NCBI GenBank assembly: GCA_000004695.1
Contig: CM000151.3
Location: 2,368,001-2,432,000 of the forward strand
Source of the DNA: Dictyostelium discoideum
Taxonomy: Eukaryota
Direction: 5' to 3'
Length of the DNA: 64,000 nucleotides
Below, in pieces: positions 32,265 through 64,000 of the stretch. The notes beneath the pieces were generated by a model. The model was not told where the DNA came from. It did not search any database and worked only from the letters and a program-made list of their open reading frames with translations. The first letter of the stretch is position 1. Each line of letters opens with the position of its first letter. Both the position numbers and the translations under genes were made by a program.

Positions 32265-32682
32265 ATGATCAGAAAACGAATACTATTATTAATTCTAATA
32301 ATAATAGTAATATTACAAATTTTTAGGGTTGAAGGAAATCCAGCAATTCAAATTTATGATGTTTCTAGTGAAGAATACTCATATAATAAATATCCAACAA
32401 ATACAAATGACAAATATTGTAATTTTTTTTTCTTAATATTTGTAACCGATACTTCAGATACTGGAGTTCAATTAAAAATAAAAACCAACGATTCAGACGC
32501 AACAATTTCAACACCAGCATTTAAAAATATTTCAAGTCAAGTTCTTCCAATTTATGTAAATACTAAATCACCAAATGATTATTCATTATTAATTACGGCA
32601 GAATATGATAATGATACATCAATTTATAGTAGTATTATAATTAATTATTCTTGTCAATGTTTGTATTGATTATTTTTTTAAG

Positions 32683-32741
<59 letters not shown>

Positions 32742-35700: not shown

Positions 35701-36860
35701 ATTTTACGATTCCCTTAACACCAACAGAAACACCAACAGAAACACCAACAGAAACACCAACAGAGACACCAACACAAACACCAATACCTACATCATCACC
35801 AATACCAACGAATAAACCACAAACATGTTTAGGTGAACCAGTATGTGGTGGATCAAAACAAGGTTTTTGTTCATCAAGTGGATGTATTTGTTATCCACCT
35901 TGGATTGGTAATGATTGTAATTCACAAGTTATAATTATACCACAACCATCAACAAATACATCACAACCATCAACTGAATTACCAATTATAGAAAACAATA
36001 ATCAAACATCAAATAGTACAAATTATTTATTCAAATCATTGATTTCAATTGTATCATTAAGAGAATTAGATTTTAATTCAAATCAAGTTAATTTATATAC
36101 ATTTGATAAATGGATTTATACACCAATTAATAATATTAAAAGTCAATACTTTACAAGTATTCAAAGTGGTGATACAAAATCAACAAATACATTAACAACT
36201 AATATTACTGTAACTTTAGAATGGTTCAATCAAACGACAATCATTCAATTTGCAAATAATAATATAACAATGAATCCATCAAGTATTAAATATACAATTG
36301 AAATTACAGAATATAAATTTTTAAATCAATTAAATAGTCTTCAACTTGTAATGTCAGCATTATTCGAATCATCAAATTCCAAAGATACTTGTTCATTAAA
36401 AGAATTTGGAGATACAAGTGATGGTGATAATTCAAACTTCTTTAAAATTCAAATTGATGACCATTCACTTTATGGTAGATTCATTAAAAGAGCAATCATC
36501 GATTCAAAAGTATCTTCAATTGAAAATCAATTATTAGATTCAAAAATGAACTCAATTCAAACATCATCAGTATCACAATCATTCATTGGTATTACAATAC
36601 CAAATTATAAACAATCAATAATTATTGATCCAGACTTTTCAGTATTAGTAGATAGTAAACCAGTATCAAATAATGATAATAATTCAATTTGTACATCAAA
36701 TAAATCAAAACTAACAAGTGCTCAACTCGCTGGTATTATTATTGGTTCCGTTGCTTTTGCCACTGTAGTTATTGTATCAGTTGTTTACTTGGTCGTGAAA
36801 AACAGAAAATCAGATTTATTCCAAAGAAAAGTACAAAACAAATTACAAAAAATGAACTGA
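32265..36860 (+). CDS. Type I membrane glycoprotein family, copy A, about 1395 aa. It has a signal peptide, a large N-glycosylated ectodomain, a (TETP)n mucin-like hinge, an EGF-like Cys knot, a stalk, a TM helix and a short basic tail. Exons: 32265..32658, 32781..33074, 33164..33454, 33573..33872, 33952..36860.
   Basis: E1: MIRKRILLLILIIIVILQIFRVEG...NYSCQ + T, then a GTTTGT donor. E2 after AAATAG: YIPRESMKINLYHTGKYKHPIYPFSTIMYITGLKYP...LIYSS + A, then GTAAGT. E3 after AAATTCAG: NSNVKEKDITFKIYPNQTNV...EMPGKGTTFLGQ...KVSC + T, then GTAAGT. E4 after ATATATAG: YNIDRKFPSF...YKWPFGFESGHNSNYSFK...NQQG, then GTAATT. E5 after AATAATAG: VVDINTLPILELESFN...TPTETPTETPTETPTETPTQTPIPTSSPIPTNKPQTCLGEPVCGGSKQGFCSSSGCICYPPWIGNDCNS...LAGIIIGSVAFATVVIVSVVYLVVKNRKSDLFQRKVQNKLQKMN*. 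All exons are phase 1. There are many N-x-S/T sequons. Confidence 0.75.
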
Positions 36861-43800: not shown

Positions 43801-45313
43801 ACCAATAGGATTTGGATACAATTCAGATATTATTTTCAGTGTTTATGGATTCATTAATAATGGCGGTTATTATAGCGGATATTCAAGCGAATCACTAAAT
43901 AATTTATCTTTTATATATACAATTAATAATATAACTTTTAATAAAGTAATACAAATCACAAAATGCAGTAAATTTAATTCATTTGATAGCGAGTTATGGA
44001 TAACAGGTAGATGTTTCAATTCAACGCAACAAGTATATGTAAAATATGAAGGAGACTCAAGCTTTAATCAAATAGTACCAACTACAGTTTATTGGAGTGC
44101 AATTTTTATTAAAAATATTAAACCAACCGATAAACCATTCATTATCAAAGTTTCAGACCTACCACTCACATCAAATGAATTCACTGTCAATCCAATAGTT
44201 TATAATTTTATAGATCCAACACCAACACAAACACCAATACCTACATCATCACCAATGCCAACGAATAAACCACAAACATGTTTAGGTGAACCAGTATGTG
44301 GTGGATCAAAACAAGGTTTTTGTTCATCAAGTGGATGTATTTGTTATCCACCTTGGATTGGTAATGATTGTAATTCACAAGTTATAATTATACCACAACC
44401 ATCAACAAATACATCACAACCATCAACTGAATTACCAATTATCGATAACAATAATCAAACATCAAATAGTACAAATTATTTATTCAAATCATTGATTTCA
44501 ATTGTATCATTAAGAGAATTAGATTTTAATTCAAATCAAGTTAATTTATATACATTTGATAAATGGATTTATACACCAATTAATAATATTAAAAGTCAAT
44601 ACTTTACAAGTATTCAAAGTGGTGATACAAAATCAACAAATACATTAACAACCAATATTACTGTAACTTTAGAATGGTTCAATCAAACGACAATTATTCA
44701 ATTCGCAAATAATAATATAACAATGAATCCATCAAGTATTAAATATACAATTGAAATTACAGAATATAAATTTTTAAAACAATTAAATAGTCTTCAACTT
44801 GTAATGTCAGCATTATTCGAATCATCAACTTCCAAAGATACTTGTTCATTAAAAGTATTTGGAGATACAAGCGATGGTGATAATTCAAACTTCTTTAAAA
44901 TTCAAATTGATGATCATTCACTTTATGGTAGATTCATTAAAAGAGCAATCATCGATTCAAAAGTGTCTTCAATTGAAAATCAATTATTAGATTCAAAAAT
45001 GAACTCAATTCAAACATCATCAGTATCACAATCATTCATTGGTATTACAATACCAAACTATAAACAATCAATAATTATTGATCCAGACTTTTCAGTATTA
45101 GTAGATAGTAAACCAGTATCAAATAATGATAATAATTCAATTTGTACATCAAATAAATCAAAACTAACAAGTGCTCAACTCGCTGGTATTATTATTGGTT
45201 CTATTGCTTTTGCCACTGTAGTTATTGTATCAGTTGTTTACTTGGTTGTGAAAAACAGAAAATCAAAAAAATTCCAAAGAAAAGTACAAAAGAAATTACA
45301 AACAATTAACTGA
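40810..45313 (+). CDS. Type I membrane glycoprotein family, copy B, 1378 aa. Exons: 40810..41215, 41289..41585, 41649..41939, 42033..42329, 42468..45313.
   Basis: E1: MIKKILLIILTLVIINSFSTINNLIIGVEGQFQLYDITNQEEGAYNRYPDSTNQKICSY...ITYSCE + T|GTTTGT. E2 after TTATATAG: YIPRELMKVNVLTSNNYKFTINPYTTLIHFTGLKYQ...FYFSS + A|GTAAGT. E3 after TTATAAG: KMNVEEKDITFKIYPNQTDV...EIPGKGTTFIGY...LNVSS + A|GTAAGT. E4 after GAATAG: KNFNFTFPNVIVEPVSLPLILNSTMFSFGF...WPFGFESGQNSNYSLK...QIDN + A|GTAAGT. E5 after AAAAATAG: TINSSLLPLELESC...IDPTPTQTPIPTSSPMPTNKPQTCLGEPVCGGSKQGFCSSSGCICYPPWIGNDCNS...LAGIIIGSIAFATVVIVSVVYLVVKNRKSKKFQRKVQKKLQTIN*. All the TTG 'M' ORFs in the track are internal to these exons. Confidence 0.75.
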
Positions 45314-46214: not shown

Positions 46215-46635
46215 ATGATAAAGAAAATTTTATTGATAATCCTAACATTGGCGATAATAAATAGCTTTTCAACAATAAATAATTTAATAATTGGGGTTGA
46301 AGGACAGTTTCAATTGTATGATATTACAAATCAAGAAGAAGGTGCTTATAATAGATACCCAGATTCAACAAATCAAAAAATTTGTTCATATGTTTTTTCG
46401 ATTGCAATAGTTGATTACTCGAATAGTGGAACAAATTTGATGGTTTTCACCAATGACACAGATGCAACAGTCTCTCTAATCAATAAGAAAGAATATGGAG
46501 GAATTGCCACAGTTATAGTTAAAAATAAAACACCAAATACTTATACATTATTAATAAATGCAACATTGCAAAATGATCAAATTATTTATAAAAATATCTC
46601 AATAACTTATTCTTGTGAATGTTTGTATATAAAAC

Positions 46636-46680
<45 letters not shown>

Positions 46681-47037
46681 AAAAAAAAAAAAAAAATAAT
46701 TAACTTTAATATCAATTTTATAGATATCCCTCGAGAATTGATGAAGGTCAATGTTTTAACAAGTAACAATTATAAATTTACACTTTTTCCTTATACAGCA
46801 ACAATACACTTTGCAGGTTTAAAATATCCACTAAATTTGCTAAATGTTTCAAGTCCTTCAAATGTTGCAATGAGCTTAGAGGGATATTCAAATTTATTCT
46901 TTGTTGGTGTAGGATTTGATAAAAATAATTTAATATCAGAGTTTAATATATCAATAAGATTCTTGGATAGTTCAGATCAACAATATACTGTAAATATTAC
47001 AATTCCTTTTTTATATTTTTCAAGTAAGTATAATAAT

Positions 47038-47068
<31 letters not shown>

Positions 47069-50000
47069 GATATTAAAATTATTATTATTTTAAGAAATGA
47101 ATGTAGAAGAAAAGGATATTACATTTAAGATCTACCCAAACCAAACTGATGTTAAAGAATTTGGAATTAATTGTTCACCAGTTTACTCTATTACATTAAA
47201 TGAAACCATTGAATATGATCCATTATTTATTGAAGATATTACAAATAATATTCCAACTCCATCATATGAAATACCAGGAAAAGGTACAACATTCATTGGC
47301 CAAGTTCATACACAATATTCTATTTTCGCAAAAATTAATAACTCATTAACAACAATTTATAGTGATCCAAATTTAAATGTTTTTAGTAAGTTTGTTAAAA
47401 TTAAATTTAATTACTTTTTAATATATACATATATCAAAGATTAATTTCTATTGACATTATTTTAATTTTTTTTTTTAAAAAAATGAATAGATAATTTTAA
47501 TTTTACATTTCCAAATGTCATTGTTGAACCAATATCAGTACCTTTAACATTAAACTCAACAATGTTTTCATTTGGATTCAATTCAAATACCCAGTATGAA
47601 ACATTTTCATTTTATTTTAGATGGAATTTAGGTTTTCAATATATCTTTAGTTGGCCATTTGGGTTTGAAAGTGGTCAAAATTCAAACTATTCTTTAAAAG
47701 CATCATTTTTAAAACCCACATATTCGCCAAACAATTTTGGTTTATTGACCTTTAATAATCGAAATTTAAATATTCAAATAGACAATAGTAAGTATATACA
47801 CATATAAAATCATTAATATTCTAAACTACTACCGAACAACACACACACACTCAAAACAATTACTAACATTAAAAAATATTTTTAAATATAGCAATAAATT
47901 CATCATTACTACCATTAGAATTAGAATCATGTAAAGTTATATACCTTTTTGAACAATTTCATTTATTAAGAATTAAAATAAAACCAACATATAAAGAGAT
48001 TGGTTATAATCTTTTCATTCAAATTAATGATGATGATGCAAATGGAATATATAGACAAGAATCATTGGTAGATGCTGAAAATAATATATATGAAATTGTT
48101 TATGATTTTAAAGGGCGTGGTTTTCAATTTTTATCTATTGGAGATTCAACTTTTAAAAAGAGTCAAGTTTATTATTTAAATAGTTATTTTTCAATTAATC
48201 CATTTTCAGTTATAGATTATAAAGCTCCAACAATATTACCTGTTTTAATAGAAAATATTACATTTTTAAAAAATTATATTGATGTGGCAAATAAATCAGT
48301 TGATAATATAATTTATTTCAATTATAATGGTACTCAAACCCATAGTAATCCTTCAGCTTCATTCTCACTTTTTATTTTAAATAGTAATACCACAGATTCT
48401 AATATAGATTTCAATAGTTTAAAGTTTGCAACTTGGAATTCAACAATTTCAAAATATCAAATTAAATTTACAGTTCTTGCAAACACTAGACCTGGTCCAC
48501 TCAGTTTCTTTTTATGGTGTGGTTTTCGAGCAATAACAAATGATATGTTTCCTTTATCATCACAACTAATAGTTGTTTCTAAACATTTCGATGAATATGG
48601 ACCAATATTTAGTAATATTGAAAAGGTTAATTCAACAAATGAATTTGGTTGGAAATTTACAATAGATGATCCAATTAATGGTTTTGATTATGGTGATATT
48701 ATAGTGAGAGGTGAAATGGATAGTTCAACTTATAAATTCCATTTAACAACTCAAAATTTAACAAGAGGTGATAAATTTAATGGTGATTATCAAATTAATA
48801 TAACTTTACCAAGTAAATGCGCATCTCAAAATTATATTATCACACAAGTTAAATTATATGATACTCAAGGTTATTCAGGTGAATTTTCAGTAGTTAATGG
48901 AATAGATGGTATTAAAAATGTATTTATAAATTATTTATCAGATCCAACAATAAATAAAGTATATAAAACATGTAGTGGTGAAAATGATGGTATCGATAGT
49001 TCACCACCAATTTTAACTTCATTCATACCAATATTAAGACAAAATAGTGATGGTACTCAATATTTATTATTCAACTTTGAAGCAGTAGATATTGAAAGTG
49101 GTTTAAAAGATAAACAATATCCAATTGTTTACATTCAAACAATAGAAGCACAAACACTTGAATGTGTATCATCTATTATTTCAATAAACGAAACAGCTGC
49201 AACCTATACATGTACCATCAATTTACCAATAGGATTTGGATACAATTCAGATATTATTTTCAGTGTTTATGGATTCATTAATAATGGCGGTTATTATAGC
49301 GGATATTCAAGCGAATCACTAAATAATTTATCTTTTATATATACAATTAATAATATAGCTTTTAATAAAGTAATACAAATCACAAAATGCAGTAAATTTA
49401 ATTCATTTGATAGCGAGTTATGGATAACAGGTAGATGTTTCAATTCAACGCAACAAGTATATGTAAAATATGAAGGAGACTCAAGCTTTAATCAAATAAT
49501 AGTACCAACTACAGTTTATTGGAGTGCAATGTTTATTAAAAATATTAAACCAACTGATAAACCATTCATTATCAAAGTTTCAGACCTACCACTCACATCA
49601 AATGAATTCACTGTCAATCCAATAGTTTATAATTTTATAGATCCAACACCAACACAAACACCAATACCTACATCATCACCAATACCAACGAATAAACCAC
49701 AAACATGTTTAGGTGAACCAGTATGTGGTGGATCAAAACAAGGTTTTTGTTCGCCAAGTGGATGTATTTGTTATCCACCTTGGATTGGTAATGATTGTAA
49801 TTCACAAGTTATAATTATACCACAACCATCAACAAATACATCACAGCCATCAACTGAATTACCAATTATCGATAACAATAATCAAACATCAAATAGTACA
49901 AATTATTTATTCAAATCATTGATTTCAATTGTATCATTAAGAGAATTAGATTTTAATTCGAATCAAGTTAATTTATATACATTTGATAAATGGATTTATA

Positions 50001-50740
50001 CACCAATTAATAATATTAAAAGTCAATACTTTACAAGTATCCAAAGTGGTGATACAAAATCAACAAATCCATTAATAACTAATATTACTGTAACTTTAGA
50101 ATGGTTCAATCAAACAAAAATCATTCAATTCGCAAATAATAATATAACAATGAATCCATCAAGTATTAAATATACAATTGAAATTACAGAATATAAATTT
50201 TTAAATCAATTAAATAGTCTTCAACTTGTAATGTCAGCATTATTCGAATCATCAACTTCCAAAGATACTTGTTCATTAAAAGAATTTGGAGATACAAGCG
50301 ATGGTGATAATTCAAACTTCTTTAAAATTCAAATTGATGACCATTCACTTTATGGTAGATTCATTAAAAGAGCAATCATCGATTCAAAAGTATCTTCAAT
50401 TGAAAATCAATTATTAGATTCAAAAATGAACTCAGTTCAAACATCATCAGTATCACAATCATTCATTGGTATTACAATACCAAACTATAAACAATCAATA
50501 ATTATTGATCCAGACTTTTCAGTATTAGTAGATAGTAAACCAGTATCAAATAATGATAATAATTCAATTTGTACATCAAATAAATCAAAACTAACAAGTG
50601 CTCAACTCGCTGGTATTATTATTGGTTCCGTTGCTTTTGCCACTGTAGTTATTGTATCAGTTGTTTACTTGGTTGTGAAAAACAAAAAATCGGTTTTGTT
50701 CCAAAGAAAAGTACAAAACAAATTACAAAAAATGAACTGA
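46215..50740 (+). CDS. Type I membrane glycoprotein family, copy C, about 1380 aa, nearly identical to B as part of a 5405-bp tandem duplication. Exons: 46215..46620, 46724..47023, 47095..47385, 47491..47787, 47892..50740.
   Basis: Same exon/intron structure, phases and splice-site sequences as B; exon lengths 406/300/291/297/2849 against 406/297/291/297/2846 in B. The proteins differ by scattered substitutions, for example E1 ...SGTNLMVFTNDTDATVSLINKKEYGG against B ...SGATLNVFTNDTDAMVYQIIRKEYGG. The C-terminus is ...VKNKKSVLFQRKVQNKLQKMN*. The true ATG is at 46215; track ORF 46125 is an upstream alternative-start artefact. Confidence 0.75.
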
Positions 50741-50827
50741 TCGGCTTAATAAATAATTGATTTCGTCCCAACTTTTTAATAAAAAAAAAAAATTAGTTAA
50801 TAATCCTAAAATTCTCTTTTTATAATA

Positions 50828-50828
<1 letters not shown>

Positions 50829-50890
<62 letters not shown>
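50829..50890. repeat. (AAT)n microsatellite, about 21 units, just 3' of copy C.
   Basis: Direct reading. Confidence 0.9.
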
Positions 50891-50893
<3 letters not shown>

Positions 50894-51090
50894 TATAAGA
50901 TGAAAAAAATTAAAATAAAATTAAAATAAAAAGAAATAAATAGGACAACAAAAACAATTTTCTAACTATGGCTTGGGTATATACTAATATTTGGTAATTA
51001 AAATTTATTTTTATTTTTATAAACATTTTCTAAGGAATTAATAGATAGTATCATCATATTTAATTAAAATTTGAATTATTATTTTCAAAT

Positions 51091-51482
51091 TTAATTAAAA
51101 TATGGTAAATCTCTATTGAGTGGTCTAGATGGCATTATTCTAATGTCCATTACATTTTCTGAATCATCATCAATTTTCTGAGTTATACACCTTGATTGAA
51201 CAAGTTCATAATCTTCTCCATTGCATTCAACTTTTCCACTATTGATTTCAAAATTTTCATTACTCCAAAGTTTACCATCTGTTTTATATTGAATAAAACG
51301 AATAAAAAGAGGTGGTGGAAAGATCATTGGAGTTGGTAATGTGATTGCTAAAAATTATTTTTAAATGTTGGATTGAAATAAATATTTAAATAAACAAAAT
51401 TGGATATATTATTTCAATTTATTATAAATAATTTACCTTTTCCACTTATTGTTGATTCTCCATCATTATTTTTAATTATCAT
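51091..51482 (-). CDS. Small hypothetical protein of about 101 aa, two exons (minus strand): 51482..51437, 51347..51091. A degenerate tandem paralogue lies at about 51600..51900.
   Basis: Exon 1: MIIKNNDGESTISGK + G|GTAAAT. Exon 2 after the TTTTTAG acceptor: AITLPTPMIFPPPLFIRFIQYKTDGKLWSNENFEINSGKVECNGEDYELVQSRCITQKIDDDSENVMDIRIMPSRPLNRDLPYFN*. The second copy has MPTDIKITNSYNGGSTV ... QQKIPPQFWFRVIDYKLEGQTW ... GSDPNLSFILGNF*, with an in-frame TGA and a missing middle section. Confidence 0.3.
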
Positions 51483-51962
51483 TTTATATCTGTTAGCATT
51501 TTCAATTTTTTTTTTTTTGTTTATTTGATTTTTATATTTATTAAAAAAAAGGGTAATAAGAAAAAAGAAAAATTAAAAAAAAAAAAAAAAAAAAACATTA
51601 AAAATTACCCAATATAAAAGAGAGATTTGGATCACTTCCCTATTTATTTAAAAAACGATGTTAATTGTATATTAAAATCGGTTTTTTTTTTTTTTTTTTT
51701 TTTTTTACCCAAGTTTGACCTTCTAATTTATAATCAATTACACGAAACCAAAATTGTGGTGGAATTTTTTGTTGTGATCAAATTGAAGATGCTATAATAA
51801 AAAAAAATATTAGAGTTATAAAAAATTAAAGAATATATAATTTGAATATTATTATCACTGTTGATCCTCCATTGTAACTATTTGTGATTTTAATATCTGT
51901 TGGCATTTAAATTTTTTTTTTTTTAATATGAAATTGATATTTTTTTTTTTTTTTTGATTTGG

Positions 51963-51999
<37 letters not shown>

Positions 52000-52796
52000 T
52001 GTAGGTTTTTAATCTTTTTAAATTGGTTTTTTTTTTTTTTTTTTAATGTATTTATTTATTTTTTTTTTATTTTTTTATATTAAAACCAAAAAAACCACCT
52101 CTGTTTGGTTATCGAACCAAATCCAAAATAAAAATAAAAATAAAAAATGAAAAAAAAATAAAAATAGTGATAATGAAAAAAAAAAAAATAAAAAATATCA
52201 TGATTTTTGGAACGATAATTTTTTTTTTTCTTTTTTTTTTTCTTTTCACCATTTTTTTAACTTCAAATAATAAATTTAATTGAGGAATTTTATGAAATTT
52301 TTTTTTTTAATTCTAAATTTAGCTTCCTCGTTTTTTTTACTTCAAAATGATCAAAATAAAGTTTTTTTTTTTTTTTTTTTTTATTTAAATTAAACAAAAA
52401 AATAAGGGACCCTCCCTTTGGGTAGGAAATAAAAAAGAGGCCAGCTCCGCATTAAATTACTTTTGACGATGATGTTTTTATCTTACAAAAAAAATAAAAA
52501 AAAAAAATCAATTTTTTTTTGAGTTTTTTTAAAAAATTATAATTCATGACATTTGCTTTTCATTTCCATTTATTTTTTTAAAATATCTATTTTTCCGACC
52601 AAAGATTTTTTTTTTCCGACCGATGATTATTTGCACTCAAAAAAAAAAAAAAAAAAAAAAAAATTGGACCCAGGGTTGTTAATATTTGAATATTGTTAAA
52701 TGTTGGATAGAAAAATATTTTTAGTATTTTTTTTTTTTTTCATTTTTTTTTTTTTTTTTTTTTAATATTAAAAATCATTTTGTATAATTAATTAAA

Positions 52797-55296
52797 ATGA
52801 ATAAAAATTTTGTTTTGTATTTATTTTATTTTATTTTTTTAAATTATTGTAATAGTCAATCATTGAACATAACAGATATTTCAGAAGCAAATTCGTATAT
52901 AGTATATCCTGATTCATCAAATTCACAAACTTGTTCTTTTAATTTTAAATTTTTTATCCAAACTGTTAATATAATAAATTATTCTGGAAGTTCATTTTCA
53001 TTTTTATTATCTAAATCTTTTGTTTTGGATACATCATCATTTATAACTAAAGATGGTCATGCATATGCATCTTTTAATGGTTTAAATTTGCCATTAGGAA
53101 ATGATAGTCTAATATTAACATCAACTTATGAAAATTCAGATGGTATTAAAATTCAACAAAATTATTCAATATCTTATAAATGTGAATGTTTGTATTTGCC
53201 CCATTAAATTAATTAATTTAATATTTTAAAAAATTATTTAAATTGCTAATTTTTTTTTTTAAAAGTAATTGAATTTAATTCTTTGGGTTATAAGGTTTTA
53301 TTAACAAATAATTTTAAAAAATCTAAATCAGGAATGAATGGAATTATTCAATTTACAGGATTAAAAAATAAACTAAAATCATTAAGTTCGAGTGGGGGAA
53401 TTTTCAATGTCAAACCAACATTTCCAAATAGTTTTTCATTTTCTGATTATCAATTTCAAAATTTAACAAAAGAAAATATAATTTCACTTTTATTTAATAA
53501 TGGTAATAATATTACAGTAAAATTTCCATCATCATTTAGTTCATGTAGGTATTTTTTTTTTATTTTTTTTTGAACTTGCACTTTTCATTTTTTTTTTTTA
53601 TTTTTTTATTTTTTTTTATTTAAAAATTTCAAAAAATAATTAATCCTCGTTTAATTTTATTATTTTTTAGATTATAATGTTGATGAAAGCAATTCAAAAG
53701 TTGTAATTTATCCAAGTGAAAGCACAAATATAATTGAATATGGATATGACAATTCTCCACTTTATTCAGTTACAATAAATAAAACCAGTGTTGATTATGA
53801 ACCTTATATTCAAGTTAATAATGGGTTTAGCAACTATTCTCAAATAACACCAATATATCAAAATGACAAAACTGTAACATATTTAGGTCAACTTATTAAT
53901 TCAGCACCTTCAAAATTATCAATTTATTCAGAGTTTAATAATTCTTTAATAAAAATCTATGAAACACCAATTTTAAATATTACAAGTAAGTATTTTAAAA
54001 TATATCTTTATAAATGAATTTTAATAGTAATGATAATAATTTTTATTATTATAATTTTATTTAGAATTTAGTAAAGAACCTTTTGTTCCAAATCCATTTA
54101 TTGTTACATACTTTAATAGTGATGGTATTTTTTTATTAAATTCATCAATGTTTACAATTACCACATCAAATCAATTTAATTTCTTAACAACAACCTATTC
54201 ATTTGGTTTATTCACAAAAGATTTTCAATGGCCATTTGGTTTTGGAAGTGGTAATAATTTTAATTATAATGTATCCGCTTCATTTTTGAGATACAAGGCT
54301 CTCATTAGTTCACCAAAAGTTTTTACTGTTGATAAAACAAATCTAATCAACATTAATTCAAATATAAGTATGTATATAATTTATTATAAATAAATTTAAA
54401 ATAATAATTAATAATAATAATATTTAAATTTTTTAATATTAATATATATTTTTATTATATTATTATTATTATTATCATTAAAACATAAACTGTTTTTTTT
54501 TTAAAAAAAAAAAAAAAATTATAGTTGCACCAACTGTAAATGCACCAATTCTTTTAAAATTTGAATGGGTTCATTTATTTTCAGGAAATTATTTATTAAA
54601 ATTTAGGGTAAAAGATAATGGATATGAAGCATTTGTTGGTATTGGTGATGTCAATACAATTGCATTAAGATATGAATCAATGATAGATAGTGAAAGTATA
54701 GGTGATGAAATTGTATTTGCAGCAGTTATAGATACATACAGATATCCAATTGACAAATTTATTGTATTCGATAGATTGGGACAAACAGAAACATATTCAA
54801 TCGGTCAATATTATTCAGTTAATCCACTTTTAAAAATTGATTCATTTTATGAAAATAATAATAAAAATAATAATAATAATAATAACTTATTACTTATTAA
54901 TAATATTACATTTTTTAATAATTTTATCGATATAATAAATAAATCAGTTGATAATGTAGTTTATTTTACATATAATGGAGGTAGAATGGATAATGATGAA
55001 AAACCAATTGGATTTATGTTAATGGACGTAGTTACATTAGTAAAGAATAGTAAATACCATTTCAACAGTTCAACACTATACTTTTCAACTTGGAATTCAA
55101 CAATATCAATGTATCAAATTAAATTTAAAATACCTGCAAATACCCAACCTGGTCATATTCCATATAGATTCTTTATCAACTCTTATTCAACACCTTTAGA
55201 TAGTGAATTCTTACCATCATCTGCACAACTATATGTAACATTATCAAGTAAGTATCTATAATATAGGTATAAATACAATTTATCAATAGTTTTCAA

Positions 55297-55378
<82 letters not shown>

Positions 55379-57625
55379 GAATCTACAGATTTCGATGGAT
55401 ATGGACCAATATTTAGTAATATTGAAAAGGTTAATTCAACAAATGAATTTGGTTGGAAATTTACAATAGATGATCCAATTAATGGTTTTGATTATGCTGA
55501 TATTATAGTTAGAGGTGAAATGGATAGTTCAACTTATAAATTCCATTTAACAACTCAAAATTTAACAAGAGGTGATAAATTTAATGGTGATTATCAAATT
55601 AATATAACTTTACCAAGTAAATGTGCATCTCAAAATTATATTATCACACAAGTTAAATTATATGATACTCAAGGTATTGGTTGCTACTTTTCAGTATCTG
55701 AATCATTTGTAGGTGGTGGTGTTAATAACCCATTTATAAATTATTTATTAGACTCAACAATAAATAAATTATATAAAAAGTGTAGTGGTGAAAATGATGG
55801 TATCGATAGTTCACCACCAATTTTAACATTATTTACACCACAAGTAGCTATTCCTGCAGATGGACATATGGAAGTATATTTCTCATTTGAAGCAACTGAT
55901 TACGAAAGTGGATTAAAAGATCTTCAATATCCAATGGTTTACGTTGAAGCAATTGAATTTCAAATATTTGAATGTGAAACAATTATTAAATCAAAGAATA
56001 TCACCTCTGCAACCTATCAATGTTACGTTTACTTACCAAGAGGTGTATTGTACACTTCAGAAATTACATTCAGTGTTTATGGATTAATTAATAATGGTGG
56101 TTGTTATGGTGGTTATTCAAGCGACTCACTAAGAATTCTATTCCCGTATAAGTTTTCAATGAAAGCAGTATCATCAGGACTTGCTAAAAGGTTAGATATC
56201 TATAGAGTTTCTCAAATTACAACAAGTGGTGGCGAATTATGGATAATAGGTGCTGGTTTCTTTTCTTCAAATCTTGTAGTATTAATTAAATATTATGGTG
56301 AATCAACATTTACACAAACATCAATACCAACTATAAGTTATCCAAATGCAATGTTAATCAATGATGTCAAACCAACTGATAAACCATTCATTATCAAAGT
56401 ACAAGAAGCTTTCTTTTCAAATGAATTCACTGTTTATCCATTAGTATTTGATATTCGTTTTGTACCACCAATTCCAACAGAATTACCAACAGAATCCCCA
56501 ACACCAAATCCATCATCATCATCTTCTTCAATAGACTCGTCATCGTCAACACCTACATCATCACCAATACCAACGAATAAACCTCAAACATGTTTAGGTG
56601 AACCATTATGTGGTGGATCAAAACAAGGATATTGTTCATCAAGTGGATGTGTTTGTTATCCACCTTGGATTGGTAATGATTGTAATTCACAAGTTATAAT
56701 TATACCACAACCATCAACAAATACATCACAACCATCAACTGAATTACCAATTATCGATAACAATAATCAAACATCAAATAGTACAAATTATTTATTCAAA
56801 TCATTGATTTCAATTGTATCATTAAGAGAATTAGATTTTAATTCAAATTAAGTTAATTTATATACATTTGATAAATGGATTTATACACCAATTAATAATA
56901 TTAAAAGTCAATACTTTACAAGTATTCAAAGTGGTGATACAAAATCAACAAATACATTAACAACCAATATTACTGTAACTTTAGAATGGTTCAATCAAAC
57001 AACAATCATTCAATTTGCAAATAATAATATAACAATGAATCCATCAAGTATTAAATATACAATTGAAATTACAGAATATAAATTTTTAAATCAATTAAAT
57101 AGTCTTCAACTTGTAATGTCAGCATTATTCGAATCATCAACTTCCAAAGATACTTGTTCATTAAAAGTATTTGGAGATACAAGCGATGGTGATAATTCAA
57201 ACTTCTTTAAAATTCAAATTGATGATCATTCACTTTATGGTAGATTCATTAAAAGAGCAATCATCGATTCAAAAGTATCTTCAATTGAAAATCAATTATT
57301 AGATTCAAAAATGAACTCAATTCAAACATCATCAATATCACAATCATTCATTGGTATTACAATACCAAATTATAAACAATCAATAATTATTGATCCAGAC
57401 TTTTCAGTATTAGTAGATAGTAAACCAGTATCAAATAATGATAATAATTCAATTTGTACATCAAATAAATCAAAACTAACAAGTTCTCAACTCGCTGGTA
57501 TTATTATTGGTTCCGTTGCTTTTGCTGCTGTCGTTGTTGTTGCAGCTTCTTATTTTATTATAAAAAAGTGGAAAGACGATAAATTTGTAAAAACATTTAA
57601 TAGAAAATTAAAAAAACTATCATAA
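52797..57625 (+). pseudogene. Type I membrane glycoprotein family, copy D. Its exons E1-E4 are divergent. It has an extra intron splitting E5, and a single in-frame TAA at 56849-56851 where the paralogues have CAA. That gives either a recent pseudogene or a truncated secreted variant lacking the TM. Exons: 52797..53187, 53266..53544, 53671..53985, 54065..54367, 54525..55247, 55389..57625.
   Basis: E1: MNKNFVLYLFYFIFLNYCNSQSLNITDISEANSYIVYPDSSNSQTCSF...SYKCE + T|GTTTGT. E2 after TTAAAAG: LIEFNSLGYKVLLTNNFKKSKSGMNGIIQFTGLKNK...SS + T|GTAGGT. E3 after TTTTTTAG: YYNVDESNSKVVIYPSESTNIIEYGYDNSPLYSVTINKT...ILNIT + A|GTAAGT. E4 after TTATTTAG: KFSKEPFVPNPFIVTYFNSDGIFLLNSSMFTITTSNQFNFL...QWPFGFGSGNNFNYNVS...NI + A|GTATGT. 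E5a after AATTATAG: IAPTVNAP...QLYVTLSS + A|GTAAGT. The intron carries (ATT)24. E5b after TCTACAG: NFDGYGPIFSNIEKVNSTNEFGWKF...FNSN*VNLY... continues in frame after the stop to ...SSQLAGIIIGSVAFAAVVVVAASYFIIKKWKDDKFVKTFNRKLKKLS*. Confidence 0.5.
55290..55380. repeat. (ATT)n microsatellite, about 30 units, inside the copy-D-specific intron.
   Basis: Direct reading. It is flanked by a GTAAGT donor (55248) and a CAG acceptor (55386-55388). Confidence 0.9.
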
Positions 57626-58554
57626 TTAACAAATAAAAAATACTGTGTATTAATTTTTTAAAAGTTTATTCCTTTTTAAAAGGAGTAGTTTAAATAAAGA
57701 TTTTTAAATAATTAATTTTTTCTATGGAATTATTTAAATAAAATTTTTAAAAAAAATATATTTAACTAGTGGATTTTATTTATTTTTAAATTGTTTTAAT
57801 TGTCTTAGAGTTTTTTTGAATTACTTTTTTTAAAAAATAAGAAAGAAACTGATACAATAACAACACAACAGATAATTCATTTGAAAAGAATTTTGAATTT
57901 TCTTGTACTTTGATAATGAATGGTTTTTCAGTTGGTTTGACATCATTAATTAACATTGTATTTGGATAAATTATAGTAGGTATTGATGTTTGTGTAAAGG
58001 TTGATTCACCATGATATTTAATTAAGACTACAAGATTATTTCATTTAATTTTTTTGTATCTACTCTATGCAAAATAGTATTTAAAAAAAAGAATTGATGT
58101 TAAGTTGGTGGTAAATTAAAATTTCTTTGTATGCTGGAAATTGAGATTCTCTAACTTTTTAATTTGAAATTATAATTGGTATAATAATAAAACTTGGGAA
58201 ACTTAATTTTAATTATCTATATGTTGAATGAATACTTTAACATCAGCCTCACTTAAATACTTCCCAGAGGTGGTAAATTTGGTGTTGATTGCAATTAATT
58301 ATTAAAAAAAATTTTTTTTTTTTTTTTTTAAAAAATATTTACTAACATAATCCACTTTTCAATTTCATAAACCAATTTCATTTTTTTAAATCTGACAACA
58401 CTGTTTAAAACTTTTTGATTGCCAAACTCTTTTTCTATATGGTTACCAAAAATCAAAGTGAGTGGTCCATGATTTTTTTAACATTATGGGTACAGTTTAT
58501 TTTGAGCATTAAAATAACAGCAGTAATGTACTCGAATTTGAAACCAATTAATTT

Positions 58555-60020
58555 TTAAGATAATGGAAATTGTGTGATAGTTTGAAATTCGAATAAATTT
58601 AATTTGGTTGCCATAGTGTTTAAGTCAATAACAGGAAGGATGATTTTAAAATTACCATTACCTTTACTATTTTGTGTGATGATGTGACCGCCATATGATA
58701 ATTCTTGGATTGATTTACCACATATACAATAACATAATAATGTTTCCAAAGTTTCATCATTGAAGCCACCAATTCTCATTCTTTGAATACGTTTTTTGAG
58801 TGAAAATCCAAATTTGGATACCATTTGAATTGAAACCGATTCATTTTCTATATCTATCAATGCATCTGAACCGTAACTATTAAAATGTTCTCTTTGTTTT
58901 ATTGAATTAAAATGATCATCTAAATCAGATATCAAATATTCCAAGTATCTTGGAACAATACCAAGATCGATAACCATTATTTTAAAAAAATTATTATCTA
59001 ATTGTGGAAAATATTTAACATTATTTTTAATTTTTAATTTTGATGACTCATATGATAATGGTTTAATATTTATATTCTCTATCTCCCATTTTGATAAAAC
59101 GATCTCTAATGAATCGGAATTGGTTCCAGTTAAAAATGGTATGATGAAAATATTGTTATTGTGTGCGTTTGATTTATTAATTTTATTACCTGTACATTTG
59201 AATGTTCCTAATGCCTATATCATTTTTTTAACGAAATTATCATATTGACTACCAAATCCTTTTGCATATTGGTGTGCCATTTGAAATTCATCAATATGAA
59301 TGAAAATTGCTAATGGTTTGGTTTGATCAGTTCTATTTTTTACAATATTCAGTAACGTATCATTTAAATTAAATAATTTATTTTCATTTCCATTTAATTT
59401 ATTTAATTTTGAATTAGAAAAAGAAAGACCTAAAACTGATCTTGAATAACCTTTTACATAATACAATTTCATCTGAATGATTTAAATCTTCAGCAACTAA
59501 AGCATCACCTCCACCATTGAAATCCATTGATATGAAAATACATTCTTTCATTATATCATTTAATGATACATAAAAAAAGGTTGGGAAATTTTTTATTTTT
59601 CACCAAAAAAAAAAAAAAAAAAAAAAAAAAATGAATACATACTCGAACAGGGTTTAACTAAATCTTGAGTTATATGTTCTTTTTTTTGAATGCTTTGAAA
59701 AAGTGAGGGTAAATCTAAAACTTTTATTTTAATTAGAACAAGGTTATTTATATTTTAAAAATTTAAAAAATTTTTACTTACTTGGGTAAACACTTTGAGG
59801 AGCTATTTCTGGAAATTTTTCATTGGACTCAACATACTTAAAACTTTTATAATCGGAATGTGTGAGAAAAATTTTGATAAATCTTGGATCAAAATTTAAT
59901 TTTTCGCCAATTAAAACTTGAAAAGAGTAATAGTAATTTATTTTATCTTTAAATCAAATAGTGAAAGTAAACTCTTTATTATTTTTACATAAATGTAATT
60001 AAAGTTTCATTTTTCATTTG
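58555..60020 (-). pseudogene. Degenerate multi-exon gene of unknown function on the minus strand. The exons are recognisable, but a frameshift and an in-frame TAG interrupt the reading frame.
   Basis: Going 5' to 3' on the minus strand: SFQVLIGEKLNFDPRFIKIFLTHSDYKSFKYVESNEKFPEIAPQSVYP|GTAAGT; ...LPSLFQSIQKKEHITQDLVKPCS|GTATGT; AG|ECIFISMDFNGGGDALVAEDLNHSDEIV; then a +1 shift into YYVKGYSRSVLGLSFSNSKL...KPLAIFIHIDEFQMAHQYAKGFGSQYDNFVKKMI; then TAG; then the same frame continues ALGTFKCTGNKINKSNAHNNNIFIIPFLTGTNSDSLEIVLSKWEIENINIKPLSYESSKLKIKNNVKYFPQLDNNFFKIMVIDLGIVPRYLEYLISDL...FQTITQFPLS* (to 58555). I recognise no domain by eye. Confidence 0.35.
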
Positions 60021-60368
60021 TAAATAAAAAATAATAATAAAGGGGGAAATAATTAATAGAGTTTTTATAAAAAAAAAAAAAAAATTAATATTGTGCGTTT
60101 TTAGCAAATTAATTGTTGAAGGGAATTTTTTTTGAAATTTCGCTTTCTAAACGGTGTACACTAAAAAAATTCACCCAAGTCAAACAAAAAAAAAAAAAAA
60201 AAAAATAAAAAAAATAAAAAAAGGGTTTAAACTCACTATAAAATATTAAAAAACTTTCCAAGTTAATCATTATGAATATTTATTTGTTTTTAATTTTAAA
60301 AATTTAAAACTACACAATAAAAATGTTTTATACTAAAATTTCTTTGAAAATAAAAAAAAATTTATTTA

Positions 60369-60373
60369 TTTTA

Positions 60374-60445
<72 letters not shown>

Positions 60446-60452
60446 AGTTTTA
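60369..60452. repeat. (ATT)n microsatellite, about 28 units.
   Basis: Direct reading. Confidence 0.9.
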
Positions 60453-61179
60453 TTGTTTATTTTATAAACAAATTACCTTTGGATGAAAGGAACAACTCTA
60501 ACAAATTTTTAATTTTTTAGGATATCCTGGGCATGGTTGGCATGGTGTAGAACCCCTTCTTTTTTGGCTGGTGCAATTGCTATTGAGTTTGTGATTACAA
60601 TATAGTTTGGTTGAGTCCATTATAAAATTGAGGTATGTTTAAATATATAAACGAAAATGATATTAATAAATAATAAATAAATAATAAATAAATAAAATAA
60701 ATATGAAAAAAAAAAAATAATAGATAAATAAAATATGAGTGAATAAAATAATTAAAGTTAAAAAAAAAAAAATCTATTTAAATACTTAAAATATTTCATT
60801 GCAACCGAGTTAATATATTTTTGATCAAAGATTTTTTTTTTATTTTATTTTTATTTTCTTTTTTTAATTTTAAAAAAAGTGGGGGAAAATATCTCCAACT
60901 GTTTTTAATTTAATATAATTTGATTTTTTTTTTTTAATTTTCTTTTTATTTCAAAAAAAGGGTAATGTTTTACAGTTAAAAAAAAAAAAATTCACTCATT
61001 ATTTTAACCAACTATAAATAAAATGAAATACAATTGTTCATTTATAAAAACTATGGCCATTATAATATTAAACCATCACATCTATATTTTTGGTTAAAAT
61101 CAAATGATCATTTTTTATTTTAAATAAAAAAACCACTTTTAGTTTATAATAATAAAAACAATTTAAAAAACATAATTAA

Positions 61180-61440
61180 TAAAACCAAAATAATAATATA
61201 ATTAATTATACATATAATAGTAATAGAAATAGAAATATTAATATCAATAGTTATAGCAATAGCTATATAGTAGTAATGGTAATAGTAATAATATAATAGT
61301 AATAACAGTAATAGCAAGAGCAATATAGTAGTAATAATAGTAATAATAGTAATAGCAATAGCAATATAGTAGTAATAATAGTAACAATAGTGATAGCAAT
61401 AGCAATATAGTAGTAATAATAGTAATAATAGCAATAATAT
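61180..61440. repeat. Imperfect minisatellite with a period of about 36 bp, built from AGTAAT/AGCAAT/AATAAT hexamers (consensus roughly AGCAATAGCAATATAGTAGTAATAATAGTAATAAT), about 6-7 units.
   Basis: Direct reading. The ORFs 61144..61434 and 61244..61468 are artefacts of this repeat. Confidence 0.8.
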
Positions 61441-61906
61441 AATGAAACCTAAAAGAATGAATGCTCATTTTCTTCTAGAGGTATTATATTTTATTATTTT
61501 AGATTGAATATAAATATTTGTACTAATTTTTTTTTTTTTTTTTTTTTTTTTTTTCTCTAATTAAAAACAAAAAACTGTTCATTGGATTTTATCGCCAAAA
61601 CCTAAACTTCTGGTCTGAAAAAAAAAAAAATCAATACCAAAAGGTGAAAAAAGAAAAAATAATAAAAAAAAAAAAAATAATAAAAAAAAAAAACAAATAA
61701 AAAAAAAAAATAAAAAAAAAAAGTGTTTGATTTGAAAAATTTAAAAAAAAATATTAAAAAGTGTTTGGTTTGGCCAATCCGCACAATAAAAAAAAAAAAG
61801 GGGGGAAATTTAAATAGAGTTTTTTTAATTTTCTATTAAACATTTTAACAAATTTATCATCTTTCCACTTTCTTATAAAAAAAGTAACTACAATTTATTA
61901 AGCTGA

Positions 61907-64000
61907 TCAGTTCATTTTTTGTAATTTACTTTGTACATTTCTTAGGAATAAATCTGATTTTCTGTTTTTCACAACCAAGTAAACAATTGATACAATAACT
62001 ACAGCAGCAAAAGCAACGGAACCAATAATAATACCAGCGAGTTGAGCACTTGTTAGTTTTGATTTATTTGATGTACAAATTGAATTATTATCATTATTTG
62101 ATACTGGTTTACTATCTACTAATACTGAAAAGTCTGGATCAATAATTATTGACTGTTTATAATTTGGTATTGTAATACCAATGAATGATTGTGATATTGA
62201 TGATGTTTGAATTGAGTTCATTTTTGAATCTAATAATTGATTTTCAATTGAAGATACTTTTGAATCGATGATTGCTCTTTTAATGAATCTACCATAAAGT
62301 GAATGATCATCAATTTGAATTTTAAAGAAGTTTGAATTATCACCATCGCTTGTATCTCCAAATTCTTTTAATGAGCAAGTATCTTTGGAATTTGATGATT
62401 CGAATAATGCTGACATTACAAGTTGAAGACTATTTAATTGATTTAAAAATTTATATTCTGTAATTTCAATTGTATATTTAATACTTGATGGATTCATTGT
62501 TATATTACTGTTAGCGAATTGAATGATTTTTGTTTGATTGAACCATTCTAAAGTTACAGTAATATTAGTTGTTAATGGATTTGTTGATTTTGGATCACCA
62601 CTTTGAATACTTGTAAAGTATTGACTTTTAATATTATTAATTGGTGTATAAATCCATTTATCAAATGTATATAAATTAACTTGATTCGAATTAAAATCTA
62701 ATTCTCTTAATGATACAATTGAAATCAATGATTTGAATAAATAATTTGTACTATTTGATGTTTGATTATTGTTATCGATAATTGGTAATTCAGTTGATGG
62801 TTGTGATGTATTTGTTGATGGTTGTGGTATAATTATAACTTGTGAATTACAATCATTACCAATCCAAGGTGGATAACAAATACATCCACTTGATGAACAA
62901 ATACCTTGTTTTGATCCACCACATACTGGTTCACCTAAACATGTTTGAGGTTTATTCGTTGGTATTGGTGATAATGGGGGTAATAATGTTGGTGTAGGTG
63001 TTAAAGAAGAAGATGATGATGATGATGATGATGAATCAATTGAAGTTGAATCGTCAGATGACAATTTAAAAGTCAATGGTAAAACATTGAATATTTTGGA
63101 CTTTTTGTTATTTGATTGATCAAATGCTTGTATAATGAAAGGTTCATCCGTTGGTTTAATATCTTCTATTAGAATAGCACTTGAATAAACTGTTGTTGGT
63201 ATTGAAATTTGTGTAAAATTTGAATCTCTATTATATTTTATATTTATTCTAATTGATAAATTTAAACCCCTTCCGACAATCCATAATTTACCACCACTAG
63301 ATGTGATTTGAGATACTCTAATGATTTCAATCTTTCTCAAAATTCCAATTTGAGTCATTGAATATTTAAATGATAAATTATTTAATGCGTCACTTGAAAA
63401 ACCACTATAATAGCCACCATTATTAATGAATCCATAAACACTGAATATAATATCTGATTTGTAACCAAATCCAGTTGGTAATTCAATTTCACATGTATAA
63501 TTTACAGTTGTTTTTGTTTTATTTTGAATTTGAGCTACACCTTGAATCACTTGTAAATCGATAGTTTGAATGTAAACTATTGGATATTGTTTATCTTTTA
63601 AACCACTTTCATTATCAGCTGCTTGAAAATCAAATGATATTATTTGATCATCATTATTTGTTCCAACTTTTTTAACAGCATTAAACCAATTTAAAATTGG
63701 TGGTGAACTATCGATACCATCATTTTCACCACTACACTTTTTATATAATTTATTTATTTTTGAATCTGATAAATAATTTATAAATGGATTTCTAATACCA
63801 CCACTAAATGATTCAGATACTGAAAATCTACAAGCATTACCTTGAGTATCATATAATTTAACTTGTGTGATAATATAATTTTGAGATGCACATCTACTTG
63901 ATATAGTGATATTAATTTGATAATCACCATTAAATTTATCACCTCTTGTTAAATTTTGAGTTGTTAAATGAAATTTATAAGTTGAACTATCCATTTCACC
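61907..64000 (-). CDS. Type I membrane glycoprotein family, copy E: the 3' portion of its large terminal exon on the minus strand, in tail-to-tail orientation with copy D. The 5' end lies beyond the window edge.
   Basis: An open frame of about 695 codons runs to the edge: ...GEMDSSTYKFHLTTQNLTRGDKFNGDYQINITISSRCASQNYIITQVKLYDTQG...SSSSSSSSSSLTPTPTLLPPLSPIPTNKPQTCLGEPVCGGSKQGICSSSGCICYPPWIGNDCNS...LAGIIIGSVAFAAVVIVSIVYLVVKNRKSDLFLRNVQSKLQKMN*, with the stop at 61907-61909. From the hinge to the TM it is nucleotide-near-identical to A/B/C/D. Confidence 0.75.
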   Translation of the reverse strand, partial: GEMDSSTYKFHLTTQNLTRGDKFNGDYQINITISSRCASQNYIITQVKLYDTQGNACRFSVSESFSGGIRNPFINYLSDSKINKLYKKCSGENDGIDSSPPILNWFNAVKKVGTNNDDQIISFDFQAADNESGLKDKQYPIVYIQTIDLQVIQGVAQIQNKTKTTVNYTCEIELPTGFGYKSDIIFSVYGFINNGGYYSGFSSDALNNLSFKYSMTQIGILRKIEIIRVSQITSSGGKLWIVGRGLNLSIRINIKYNRDSNFTQISIPTTVYSSAILIEDIKPTDEPFIIQAFDQSNNKKSKIFNVLPLTFKLSSDDSTSIDSSSSSSSSSSLTPTPTLLPPLSPIPTNKPQTCLGEPVCGGSKQGICSSSGCICYPPWIGNDCNSQVIIIPQPSTNTSQPSTELPIIDNNNQTSNSTNYLFKSLISIVSLRELDFNSNQVNLYTFDKWIYTPINNIKSQYFTSIQSGDPKSTNPLTTNITVTLEWFNQTKIIQFANSNITMNPSSIKYTIEITEYKFLNQLNSLQLVMSALFESSNSKDTCSLKEFGDTSDGDNSNFFKIQIDDHSLYGRFIKRAIIDSKVSSIENQLLDSKMNSIQTSSISQSFIGITIPNYKQSIIIDPDFSVLVDSKPVSNNDNNSICTSNKSKLTSAQLAGIIIGSVAFAAVVIVSIVYLVVKNRKSDLFLRNVQSKLQKMN

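Follow-up and report, generated by a model that had tools for sequence, protein, structure and literature searches.

Gene D, one of five neighbouring ComC-like genes in Dictyostelium discoideum AX4, is interrupted by an in-frame stop codon, TAA at 56849-56851 of the + strand, which corresponds to a change of CAA to TAA at Gln1158 of 1415. The gene is nevertheless annotated publicly as intact, with a 72-nt intron that takes the stop out of the message. Our overall reading, which we consider probable, is that the stop is a real, derived and young nonsense allele, probably null or anchorless, and that the intron is an artefact.

The window, i.e. the whole 64,000-nt stretch of DNA that was analysed, lies in the duplicated region of AX4 chromosome 2, as established by an exact protein match. 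Its five neighbouring cell-surface protein genes (A to E) are of the ComC-like type I membrane protein class, with the domains DUF7035, DUF7034, EGF/DUF7949, ComC supersandwich and TM (Pfam), and dozens of such paralogs are found in each Dictyostelium genome. A first guess from the raw sequence, the Tgr/IPT family, was rejected because Pfam gives ComC_SSD, DUF7035 and DUF7034. Gene D occupies 52797..57625 on the + strand, where the exact AX4 protein maps, and encodes a ComC-like EGF/supersandwich type I membrane protein with two AX4 protein records, XP_645075.2 (P0087; Q558J3) and XP_644339.1 (P0022; Q556L9). Its real exons, all on the + strand, are 52797-53187, 53266-53544, 53671-53985, 54065-54367, 54525-55247 and 55389-57622, and the restored frame has 1415 codons. 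All four Pfam domains of the family are present in D in the right order, with scores of 123-126 bits for DUF7035, 72-76 for DUF7034 and 56-58 for DUF7949, each above the gathering score, and of 51.6 bits (cut-off 24) for ComC_SSD on the post-stop frame. The topology is also that of a type I protein: a hydrophobic N-terminus (MNKNFVLYLFYFIFLNYCNSQ) supplies the signal peptide and a single C-terminal TM helix (LAGIIIGSVAFAAVVVVAASYFII, 57491-57562) follows the supersandwich, placing it downstream of the stop in AX4; in the AF2 model of the paralog B module the helix spans residues 303-347. Intron 5 (55248..55388, + strand) is specific to D and is also present in the orthologous gene of the divergent strain ACTFIW. 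A break in D at 55259-55520 had been a candidate second lesion, but was rejected since it is this genuine intron, bounded by GTAAGT and ACAG and carrying (ATT)27 at 55298-55378.

The stop codon falls in the C-terminal module of D (56544..57540, + strand), which consists of EGF/DUF7949 (56591-56695), a linker and the ComC supersandwich and is homogenised among the paralogs by gene conversion. The initial annotation had described a near-identical stalk module. The "stalk" is in fact the EGF-like domain, linker, beta-supersandwich (Pfam ComC_SSD) and TM helix, and the module, of approximately 1 kb, is 97.3-97.9% identical to the AX4 paralogs rather than literally identical, yet D stands alone at just 8 positions of the module. 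D-specific positions include 56606, 56629, 56631 and 56651 upstream of the stop and 57485, 57532 and 57536 downstream of it. In the 834 nt that lie between 56651 and 57485, D has no private difference other than the C-to-T change at 56849. There are five occurrences of the 18-mer AATTCAAATYAAGTTAAT in the window, where chance alone would give 0.03; four of them read CAA and the one in D reads TAA. The homologous CAA codons are at 36084..36086 (paralog A), 44537..44539 (B) and 49964..49966 (C, AX4 protein P0012) on the + strand and at 62681..62683 on the - strand (E, AX4 protein P0021). This bears out the reported contrast between TAA in D and CAA in A, B, C and E, but the preceding AAT TCA AAT is not shared by all five copies, as C and E both read AAT TCG AAT CAA, TCA to TCG being synonymous. 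The open continuation (56852..57625, + strand) covers the rest of the supersandwich, the TM helix and the cytoplasmic tail; it holds 257 sense codons, not the 258 counted previously, followed by the normal TAA at 57623-57625. Stop-creating changes make up 6.2% of all possible single-base changes in the coding sequence of D, so that a lone nonsense SNP is in itself nothing unusual for a multigene family.

The orthologous gene in the divergent strain (GCA_054859355.1, ACTFIW; L003) has CAA at this position and is intact, encoding a 1393-aa protein (P0088) that reads ...DFNSNQVNLY.... The base is C in all four AX4 paralogs and in five module copies from two other strains, and T is therefore the derived state. 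Judged from the assemblies compared, the C-to-T change is real, derived, confined to the AX4-type lineage and polymorphic in D. discoideum. The frame is thus disabled in D and intact in its orthologs and paralogs. No D ortholog was found at the D. cf. discoideum loci, one of which has a fragmentary E only, and so there is no outgroup state for D. Close Dictyostelium relatives thus differ in how many genes the ComC-like cluster has and in how intact these are.

The initial annotation had offered very recent pseudogenisation as one of three explanations, and this is the one that the comparative data favour. The module diverges by 1.5-2.7% among the AX4 copies and by 4-5.5% between orthologs of different strains, i.e. 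paralogs within a genome are closer than orthologs between genomes, as is characteristic of concerted evolution, and a neighbour-joining tree of the module copies grouped them by genome and not by orthology. No further lesions and no excess of private changes were found downstream of the stop in D. Between AX4-D and ACTFIW-D there are approximately 238 coding differences, yet only one stop, where 6.2% of random changes would be nonsense, and dN/dS is 0.35 overall and 0.37 downstream of the stop, which indicates that D had been under constraint until it acquired the stop. Gene conversion from functional paralogs is, however, a confounding factor for the downstream value. Relaxed constraint, in the form of a dN/dS near 1 or more lesions past the stop, is thus absent. 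This argues for youth and not against a pseudogene, since a very young mutation, or a sequence refreshed by gene conversion, would give this pattern.

The likely course of events can be outlined. One C-to-T transition would have converted the Gln1158 codon CAA to the ochre codon TAA in one of the five clustered ComC-like genes. Translation would then end just after beta-strand 1 of the membrane-proximal supersandwich domain, and the product would be at most a signal-peptide-bearing 1157-aa ectodomain fragment lacking the supersandwich, the TM helix and the tail. We infer that the TAA allele has lost its function and represents a young or segregating pseudogene. Loss of D would be tolerated because four intact paralogs adjoin it, and the pristine look of the 257 downstream codons would follow from the youth of the mutation and from gene conversion, which keeps overwriting the ~1-kb module and could equally repair the stop or spread it among the paralogs. 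That the mutation is recent, and that no splicing removes it, we infer from the sequence.

A second explanation put forward at the outset was a soluble form of the protein. The truncated product would then be a stable, secreted 1157-aa ectodomain acting as a soluble or decoy form of a receptor or adhesin family. The signal peptide and all of the domains upstream of the stop (the N-terminal domains, DUF7035, DUF7034 and EGF) are indeed intact, and the stop is in the last real exon with no intron downstream of it. A stop in the last exon often spares an mRNA from exon-junction-dependent decay. However, the allele is private to one lineage and another strain has a full-length ortholog; nothing points to adaptation, for example a 3' part that has decayed or been remodelled on becoming useless; and, according to the structural model, termination one strand into the beta-sandwich would leave an unpaired hydrophobic strand. 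A functional truncation is, therefore, unlikely, and loss of function is the preferred reading of the stop.

It has also to be asked whether the stop is ever translated, as the public model excises it. The 72-nt "intron" (56781..56852, + strand; GTACAAAT...AAATTAAG) removes STNYLFKSLISIVSLRELDFNSN*V, and both AX4 duplicate models as well as the ACTFIT model read ...QTSN|INLYTF..., each of them thereby skipping the stop. If the intron were real, a cryptic GT..AG pair in former coding sequence would be used, a case of intronization, giving a 1391-aa membrane protein without 24 residues. The segment has GT..AG boundaries, its length is a multiple of 3 that falls in the Dictyostelium range, and its acceptor AAG is acceptable, as two of the nine mapped introns of C and D end in AAG. 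Its donor is much less convincing: all nine mapped introns have GT(A/T)(A/T/G)GT(A/T)T (GTNNGT type), and GTACAAAT (GTACAA) lacks the G+5 and T+6 present in every one of them. The composition is not intron-like either, with an AT content of 82% compared with 87-96% in the real introns here (one is at 78%). Dictyostelium introns have a genome mean AT content of 89% and a CTRAY-type branch motif (PMC2483917), and the 72-nt segment contains no CT dinucleotide at all, hence no CTRAY branch-point motif. Furthermore, 86 GT..AG pairs that keep the frame and take out the stop can be drawn within 400 nt to each side, and the annotated pair is the shortest of them, so that boundaries and length of this kind are available by chance.

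Another objection to the intron comes from the homologs, in which the segment is coding. The paralogs carry these GT..AG boundaries too, and the 72 nt that they delimit are almost the same (D differs from A and B only by the C-to-T change) but are there annotated as exon; all four AX4 paralogs translate the segment, and it is conserved across 57 homologs. Homologs were sought with paralog B as the query; a homology search with the pre-stop open reading frame gave only 3 distant matches and missed D's own annotated protein. In the AF2 model of the paralog B module, beta-strand 1 of the supersandwich (KSLISIVSLREL; 56798..56833, + strand) comprises residues 75-86 with pLDDT >90 and lies inside the annotated intron. 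E85 is invariant among the 57 homologs and S76, S79 and R84 are at least 90% conserved, and the 72-nt intron removes them all, so that the best-conserved strand of the supersandwich domain would be deleted. In keeping with this, the ComC_SSD match in annotated D is without its N-terminal part, starting at profile position 32 where that of the intact ortholog starts at 12 and that of paralog B at 6, and drops from 60.6 to 46.4 bits. Two independent annotation efforts, for AX4 and by the ACTFIT pipeline, did arrive at the 72-nt intron, but the ACTFIT pipeline also makes a 39-nt intron in the signal peptide and agreement between gene-finders is thus weak evidence. Exact-protein look-ups of the 443-aa pre-stop and 196-aa post-stop open reading frames returned no entry, and none that was transcript-derived.

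Taken on its sequence features, the 72-nt intron is most likely a gene-finder device to keep the frame open, i.e. an artefact, and it is improbable that it is spliced. Its evolutionary corollary, a conversion of exon to intron in the AX4 lineage in which the TAA would be spliced out via latent GT..AG sites present in all five paralogs, is hardly to be expected. Were it true, this would be a strain-polymorphic intron birth caught in the act, with the ancestral unspliced state preserved in the paralogs and other strains.

The last of the explanations raised initially was an error in the reference: a wrong base call, or a chimera assembled from the five near-identical 1-kb repeats, with C as the true base. 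A five-copy repeat at 97-98% identity is certainly hard to assemble, and in a third D. discoideum strain (ACTFIR), which is therefore uninformative, the assembly breaks exactly at this module, both contigs stopping within it or ahead of it. An independent D. discoideum assembly, GCA_054883475.1 (L002), is 99.87% identical to the window over 10.8 kb and has TAA at its positions 7053-7055. It differs from the window in intergenic poly-T tracts only, which shows that the reference was not simply copied, and the same differences make reference-guided polishing less likely. Should it come from an AX4 subclone, it would still bear out the base call but would not inform the age of the mutation. Moreover, the same gene model was needed to work around the stop in each copy of the duplication on AX4 chromosome 2. 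The cross-strain comparison proposed at the start thus gave TAA in GCA_054883475.1 and CAA in GCA_054859355.1, and at the level of assembly data the mutation is real; a sequencing or assembly error is very improbable and effectively excluded.

Translational readthrough of the TAA to give the full-length protein would fit with a downstream frame that is intact for 257 codons, but gene conversion and a recent mutation already account for that frame, no readthrough-type motif is found downstream of the stop and the stop context in D is TAA-G, an efficient eukaryotic terminator; this explanation, being unnecessary, was rejected as extremely unlikely.

A nonsense allele with an artefactual intron implies that the two reference records (XP_645075.2/Q558J3 and XP_644339.1/Q556L9) and the newer-assembly model probably describe a protein that is never made, and that locus D would be better handled as a nonsense allele or young pseudogene. 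For users of the AX4 lineage, copy D is probably null there and intact in at least one other strain. It is probably an ordinary young pseudogene or truncation allele, mostly of housekeeping relevance, and also a small, clean example of a lesion inside a gene-conversion tract, where it may be erased or copied into the neighbouring paralogs.

All five genes share with the ComC-like Dictyostelium proteins (PF22933, DUF7035, DUF7034, DUF8390, DUF7949) the full domain order, the signal peptide and the single C-terminal TM segment; AX4 D differs from these in being interrupted at approximately position 45 of 222 in the ComC_SSD profile. Searches of the literature on the accessions, assemblies and family gave nothing specific and no experimentally described role for the five genes was found. 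The entry for comC itself gives just "has EGF domains" (PMC4931340). At the level of fold, the AF2 module model matches the GLMP luminal domain (6nyq_C, E = 5.8e-6, TM 0.42-0.45) and also YidC P1 periplasmic domains. As in GLMP, the module would be a beta-sandwich directly before a single TM helix, but with an identity of ~9% and modest TM-scores the likeness to GLMP and YidC is one of predicted fold alone, from which no function is to be drawn.

The annotated intron resembles a familiar type of artefact, the short in-frame "intron" placed over a stop, and has the same shortest pair of sites, non-consensus donor and removal of conserved coding sequence. It may be compared with the model of Catania and Lynch (2008), in which exonic sequence is intronized after a premature stop (PMC2586383). 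D is like that model in having a premature stop within a latent GT..AG segment whose removal keeps the frame, and unlike it in that the donor is weak and no compensating changes strengthen the sites. Another parallel is with the young or segregating pseudogenes of tandem families that evolve by birth-and-death and gene conversion. Although D, unlike a typical member of that class, is annotated publicly as intact and is a probable rather than a demonstrated null, it has likewise a single disabling point mutation, an intact allele elsewhere, variable copy number and a module under concerted evolution.

The window is very AT-rich (GC about 22%), and its second half is occupied by five paralogous multi-exon genes: A (32265-36860), B (40810-45313), C (46215-50740) and D (52797-57625) on the plus strand, and E (61907 to beyond 64000) on the minus strand. 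By Pfam, all five encode DUF7035, DUF7034, the EGF-like DUF7949 and the 'ComC supersandwich domain', with a TM helix after it, which places them in a ComC-like family with dozens of members in each Dictyostelium genome. The window belongs to chromosome 2 of D. discoideum AX4, as an exact protein match shows: its ORF at 22435-23289 equals DDB_G0272586 / DDB_G0273989, a gene that AX4 carries twice through its chromosome 2 duplication. A small gene for a calcium-dependent cell adhesion protein (Dicty_CAD, PF05720; about 51091-51482, minus strand) lies between C and D; Dicty_CAD is likewise interleaved with ComC-like genes in the three other strains examined, ACTFIR having two copies. Between A and B (37347-38693) several short ORFs on both strands carry the repeating peptide 'STLQLPYLIQN' and look like pieces of a degraded or multi-exon gene.

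An in-frame TAA is present in D at 56849-56851, where a C-to-T transition has turned Gln1158 (of 1415 codons) into an ochre stop, one β-strand into the membrane-proximal supersandwich. The homologous codon is CAA in each of the other four copies, as the initial annotation stated, although the context AAT TCA AAT that it gave for all of them is altered in C and E, which have TCG. Chance alone would give 0.03 occurrences of the 18-mer around the site in the window, and there are five. After the stop the frame is open, as claimed, for 257 codons rather than 258, up to the normal stop at 57623-57625; this stretch codes for what remains of the supersandwich, then for the TM helix (57491-57562) and a short tail. 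The C-terminal module of D (56544-57540, about 1 kb) is indeed near-identical to its AX4 paralogs (97.3-97.9%), but the 'stalk' proves to be EGF, linker and β-supersandwich. In the module D has only eight private positions, of which four fall at the 5' edge (56606-56651) and three at the 3' edge (57485-57536); the remaining one, 56849, is the sole private change over 834 nt.

A second, shorter homogenised block of about 200 nt (D 55520-55680) encodes MDSSTYKFHLTTQNLTRGDKFNGDYQINITLPSKCASQNYIITQVKLYDTQG, with homologous stretches in A, B and C. It is 98-100% identical among A-D and 95-96% identical to E within an otherwise divergent DUF7035 region; such identities suggest either a gene-conversion tract of its own or a segment under strong constraint. 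D also has an intron (55248-55388) where B and C have none; it contains a perfect (ATT)27 microsatellite (55298-55378), unchanged in length in the independent assembly L002 (GCA_054883475.1). The ortholog in strain ACTFIW (L003, GCA_054859355.1) shares this extra intron (L003 5355-5505).

The TAA is real and ordinary, and is best read as a nonsense allele of recent origin, specific to one lineage, in a surface-protein family with fast turnover and gene conversion. Translation of D would end at Gln1158, and the product, if stable, would be an anchorless ectodomain of 1157 aa. More likely the allele is null, and would be tolerated thanks to the four adjacent paralogs, which the duplication brings to eight gene copies in AX4. 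The last real exon of D (55389-57622) holds the stop. A stop so placed would not be expected to provoke exon-junction-dependent decay, but with a long 3' UTR the mRNA might still be unstable. A functional secreted isoform produced from the TAA allele, as was initially proposed, is unlikely, and nothing supports it.

Intronization (the model of PMC2586383) would allow D to avoid the stop altogether. The AX4 D protein XP_645075.2 maps exactly to the window as seven exons, the last intron (56781-56852, 72 nt) excising STNYLFKSLISIVSLRELDFNSN*V and splicing ...QTSN onto INLYTF..., and the annotation of strain ACTFIT has the same intron. This agreement of predictors carries little weight, as the pipeline used for ACTFIT also invents a 39-nt intron in the signal peptide. 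That 'intron' (MNKNFV|FQSLN), seen in D orthologs of the newer assemblies (L002 3001-3060, L003 3021-3059), removes the hydrophobic core of the signal peptide and is probably another gene-model artefact. The donor of the 72-nt intron is GTACAAAT, unlike the GT(A/T)(A/T/G)GT(A/T)T found in nine out of nine other mapped introns of C and D. Its AT content is 82%, compared with mostly 87-96% in neighbouring real introns and 72% in the flanking exon; the genome mean for introns is 89% (PMC2483917). As the segment contains no CT dinucleotide, it has no CTRAY-type branch motif. Within 400 nt either side, 86 GT..AG pairs would remove the stop and keep the frame, and the annotated pair is the shortest, so a gene-finder would pick it. 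C and E have the same GT and AG in an otherwise near-identical 72 nt that is annotated as coding. No part of the module is better conserved in 57 homologs than the excised residues (E85 invariant; S76, S79 and R84 at least 90% conserved), which form the first β-strand of the sandwich (75-86, pLDDT >90) in an AlphaFold model of the paralog B module (pLDDT 76.9 overall). The ComC_SSD match of the annotated D protein starts only at profile position 32 (46 bits), compared with position 12 (61 bits) for the intact ortholog and position 6 (62 bits) for paralog B. On these grounds we consider the 72-nt intron a probable annotation artefact, and a real one decidedly unlikely. One practical outcome is that the reference models for the D locus are probably incorrect.

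Four D-type proteins share 90%-identity clusters with the AX4 models in the protein database, and DNA was compared for two of them (L002 and L003). L002 (locus-tag prefix ACTFIT, labelled D. discoideum) is 99.87% identical to window 49788-60625. It departs from the window solely by five substitutions and two indels within intergenic poly-T tracts, so it is an independently produced sequence of a near-identical strain. In accession lists this strain apparently has single copies of genes doubled in AX4, which suggests a strain without the AX3/AX4 duplication. The homologous site in L002 is TAA, and the stop has to be skipped in both AX4 duplicate gene models. A sequencing error at 56849, which the initial annotation had allowed for, is thus very unlikely. 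At D residue 12 (codon 52830-52832), XP_645075.2 and the window have F and the other AX4 D protein, XP_644339.1, has C, either a true difference between the duplicate copies or a base-call error in one. Readthrough of the TAA is very unlikely.

The strain comparison called for by the initial annotation proved informative, since L003 (prefix ACTFIW, D. discoideum) has CAA at this site. Its D ortholog is uninterrupted (1393 aa), reads ...LRELDFNSNQVNLYTF... and is 90% identical to AX4 D in the D-specific 1100 residues (DNA about 92%). C is present at this position in all other module copies recovered from three strains, so T is derived and, in the sequences compared, is so far limited to the AX4-type lineage. 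ACTFIR adds nothing on the stop, as its contigs break off within the repeated module or short of it. The window and L003 are strongly diverged in these genes: D and C are 90-92% identical in protein (dS = 0.12 for D), against 97% for an unrelated neighbour gene. This points either to a deeply diverged ACTFIW lineage or to unusual polymorphism in these surface proteins. The convergent 3' ends of D and E (57626-61906) are about 4.3 kb apart in AX4 and ACTFIT, the gap holding a 367-aa gene (minus strand, 58555-60270) that has no Pfam family, as well as low-complexity sequence near 61144-61434. In ACTFIW the gap is only about 230 nt (L003 7737-7968), and in the assemblies compared this interval is polymorphic for an insertion or deletion.

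Copies of the module cluster with others from the same genome, not with their orthologs: those in AX4 are 1.5-2.7% different from each other, and AX4 D is 5.0% different from its ACTFIW ortholog. Judged from this grouping, gene conversion keeps the module in concerted evolution. If the stop is read as sense, dN/dS between AX4 D and ACTFIW D is 0.35 for the 1400 codons as a whole, and the 257 post-stop codons give 0.37. The two differ at about 238 coding positions, and 6.2% of random single-base changes are nonsense; unconstrained drift would give several stops and only one is present, so D was evidently functional until recently. The post-stop ratio, the single private change and the intact CAA ortholog all favour the very recent pseudogenisation first suggested. 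That the post-stop frame is clean can be put down to the youth of the mutation, to refreshment by conversion, or to both. The make-up of the cluster is fluid as well. In two D. cf. discoideum genomes (L005, GCA_054859205.1; L006, GCA_054859235.1) the orthologous cluster has one ortholog of A, a single one for B and C together and none of D, and in L005 E is present as fragments only (models of 371 and 395 aa). Hence D and the B/C duplication are either peculiar to D. discoideum proper or have been lost from the sister lineage.

The modelled paralog B module (44264-45310; EGF, linker, β-supersandwich and TM helix) has its closest structural resemblance to the luminal domain of GLMP, a lysosomal membrane glycoprotein (6nyq_C, E = 5.8e-6), and to the periplasmic supersandwich domains of YidC.
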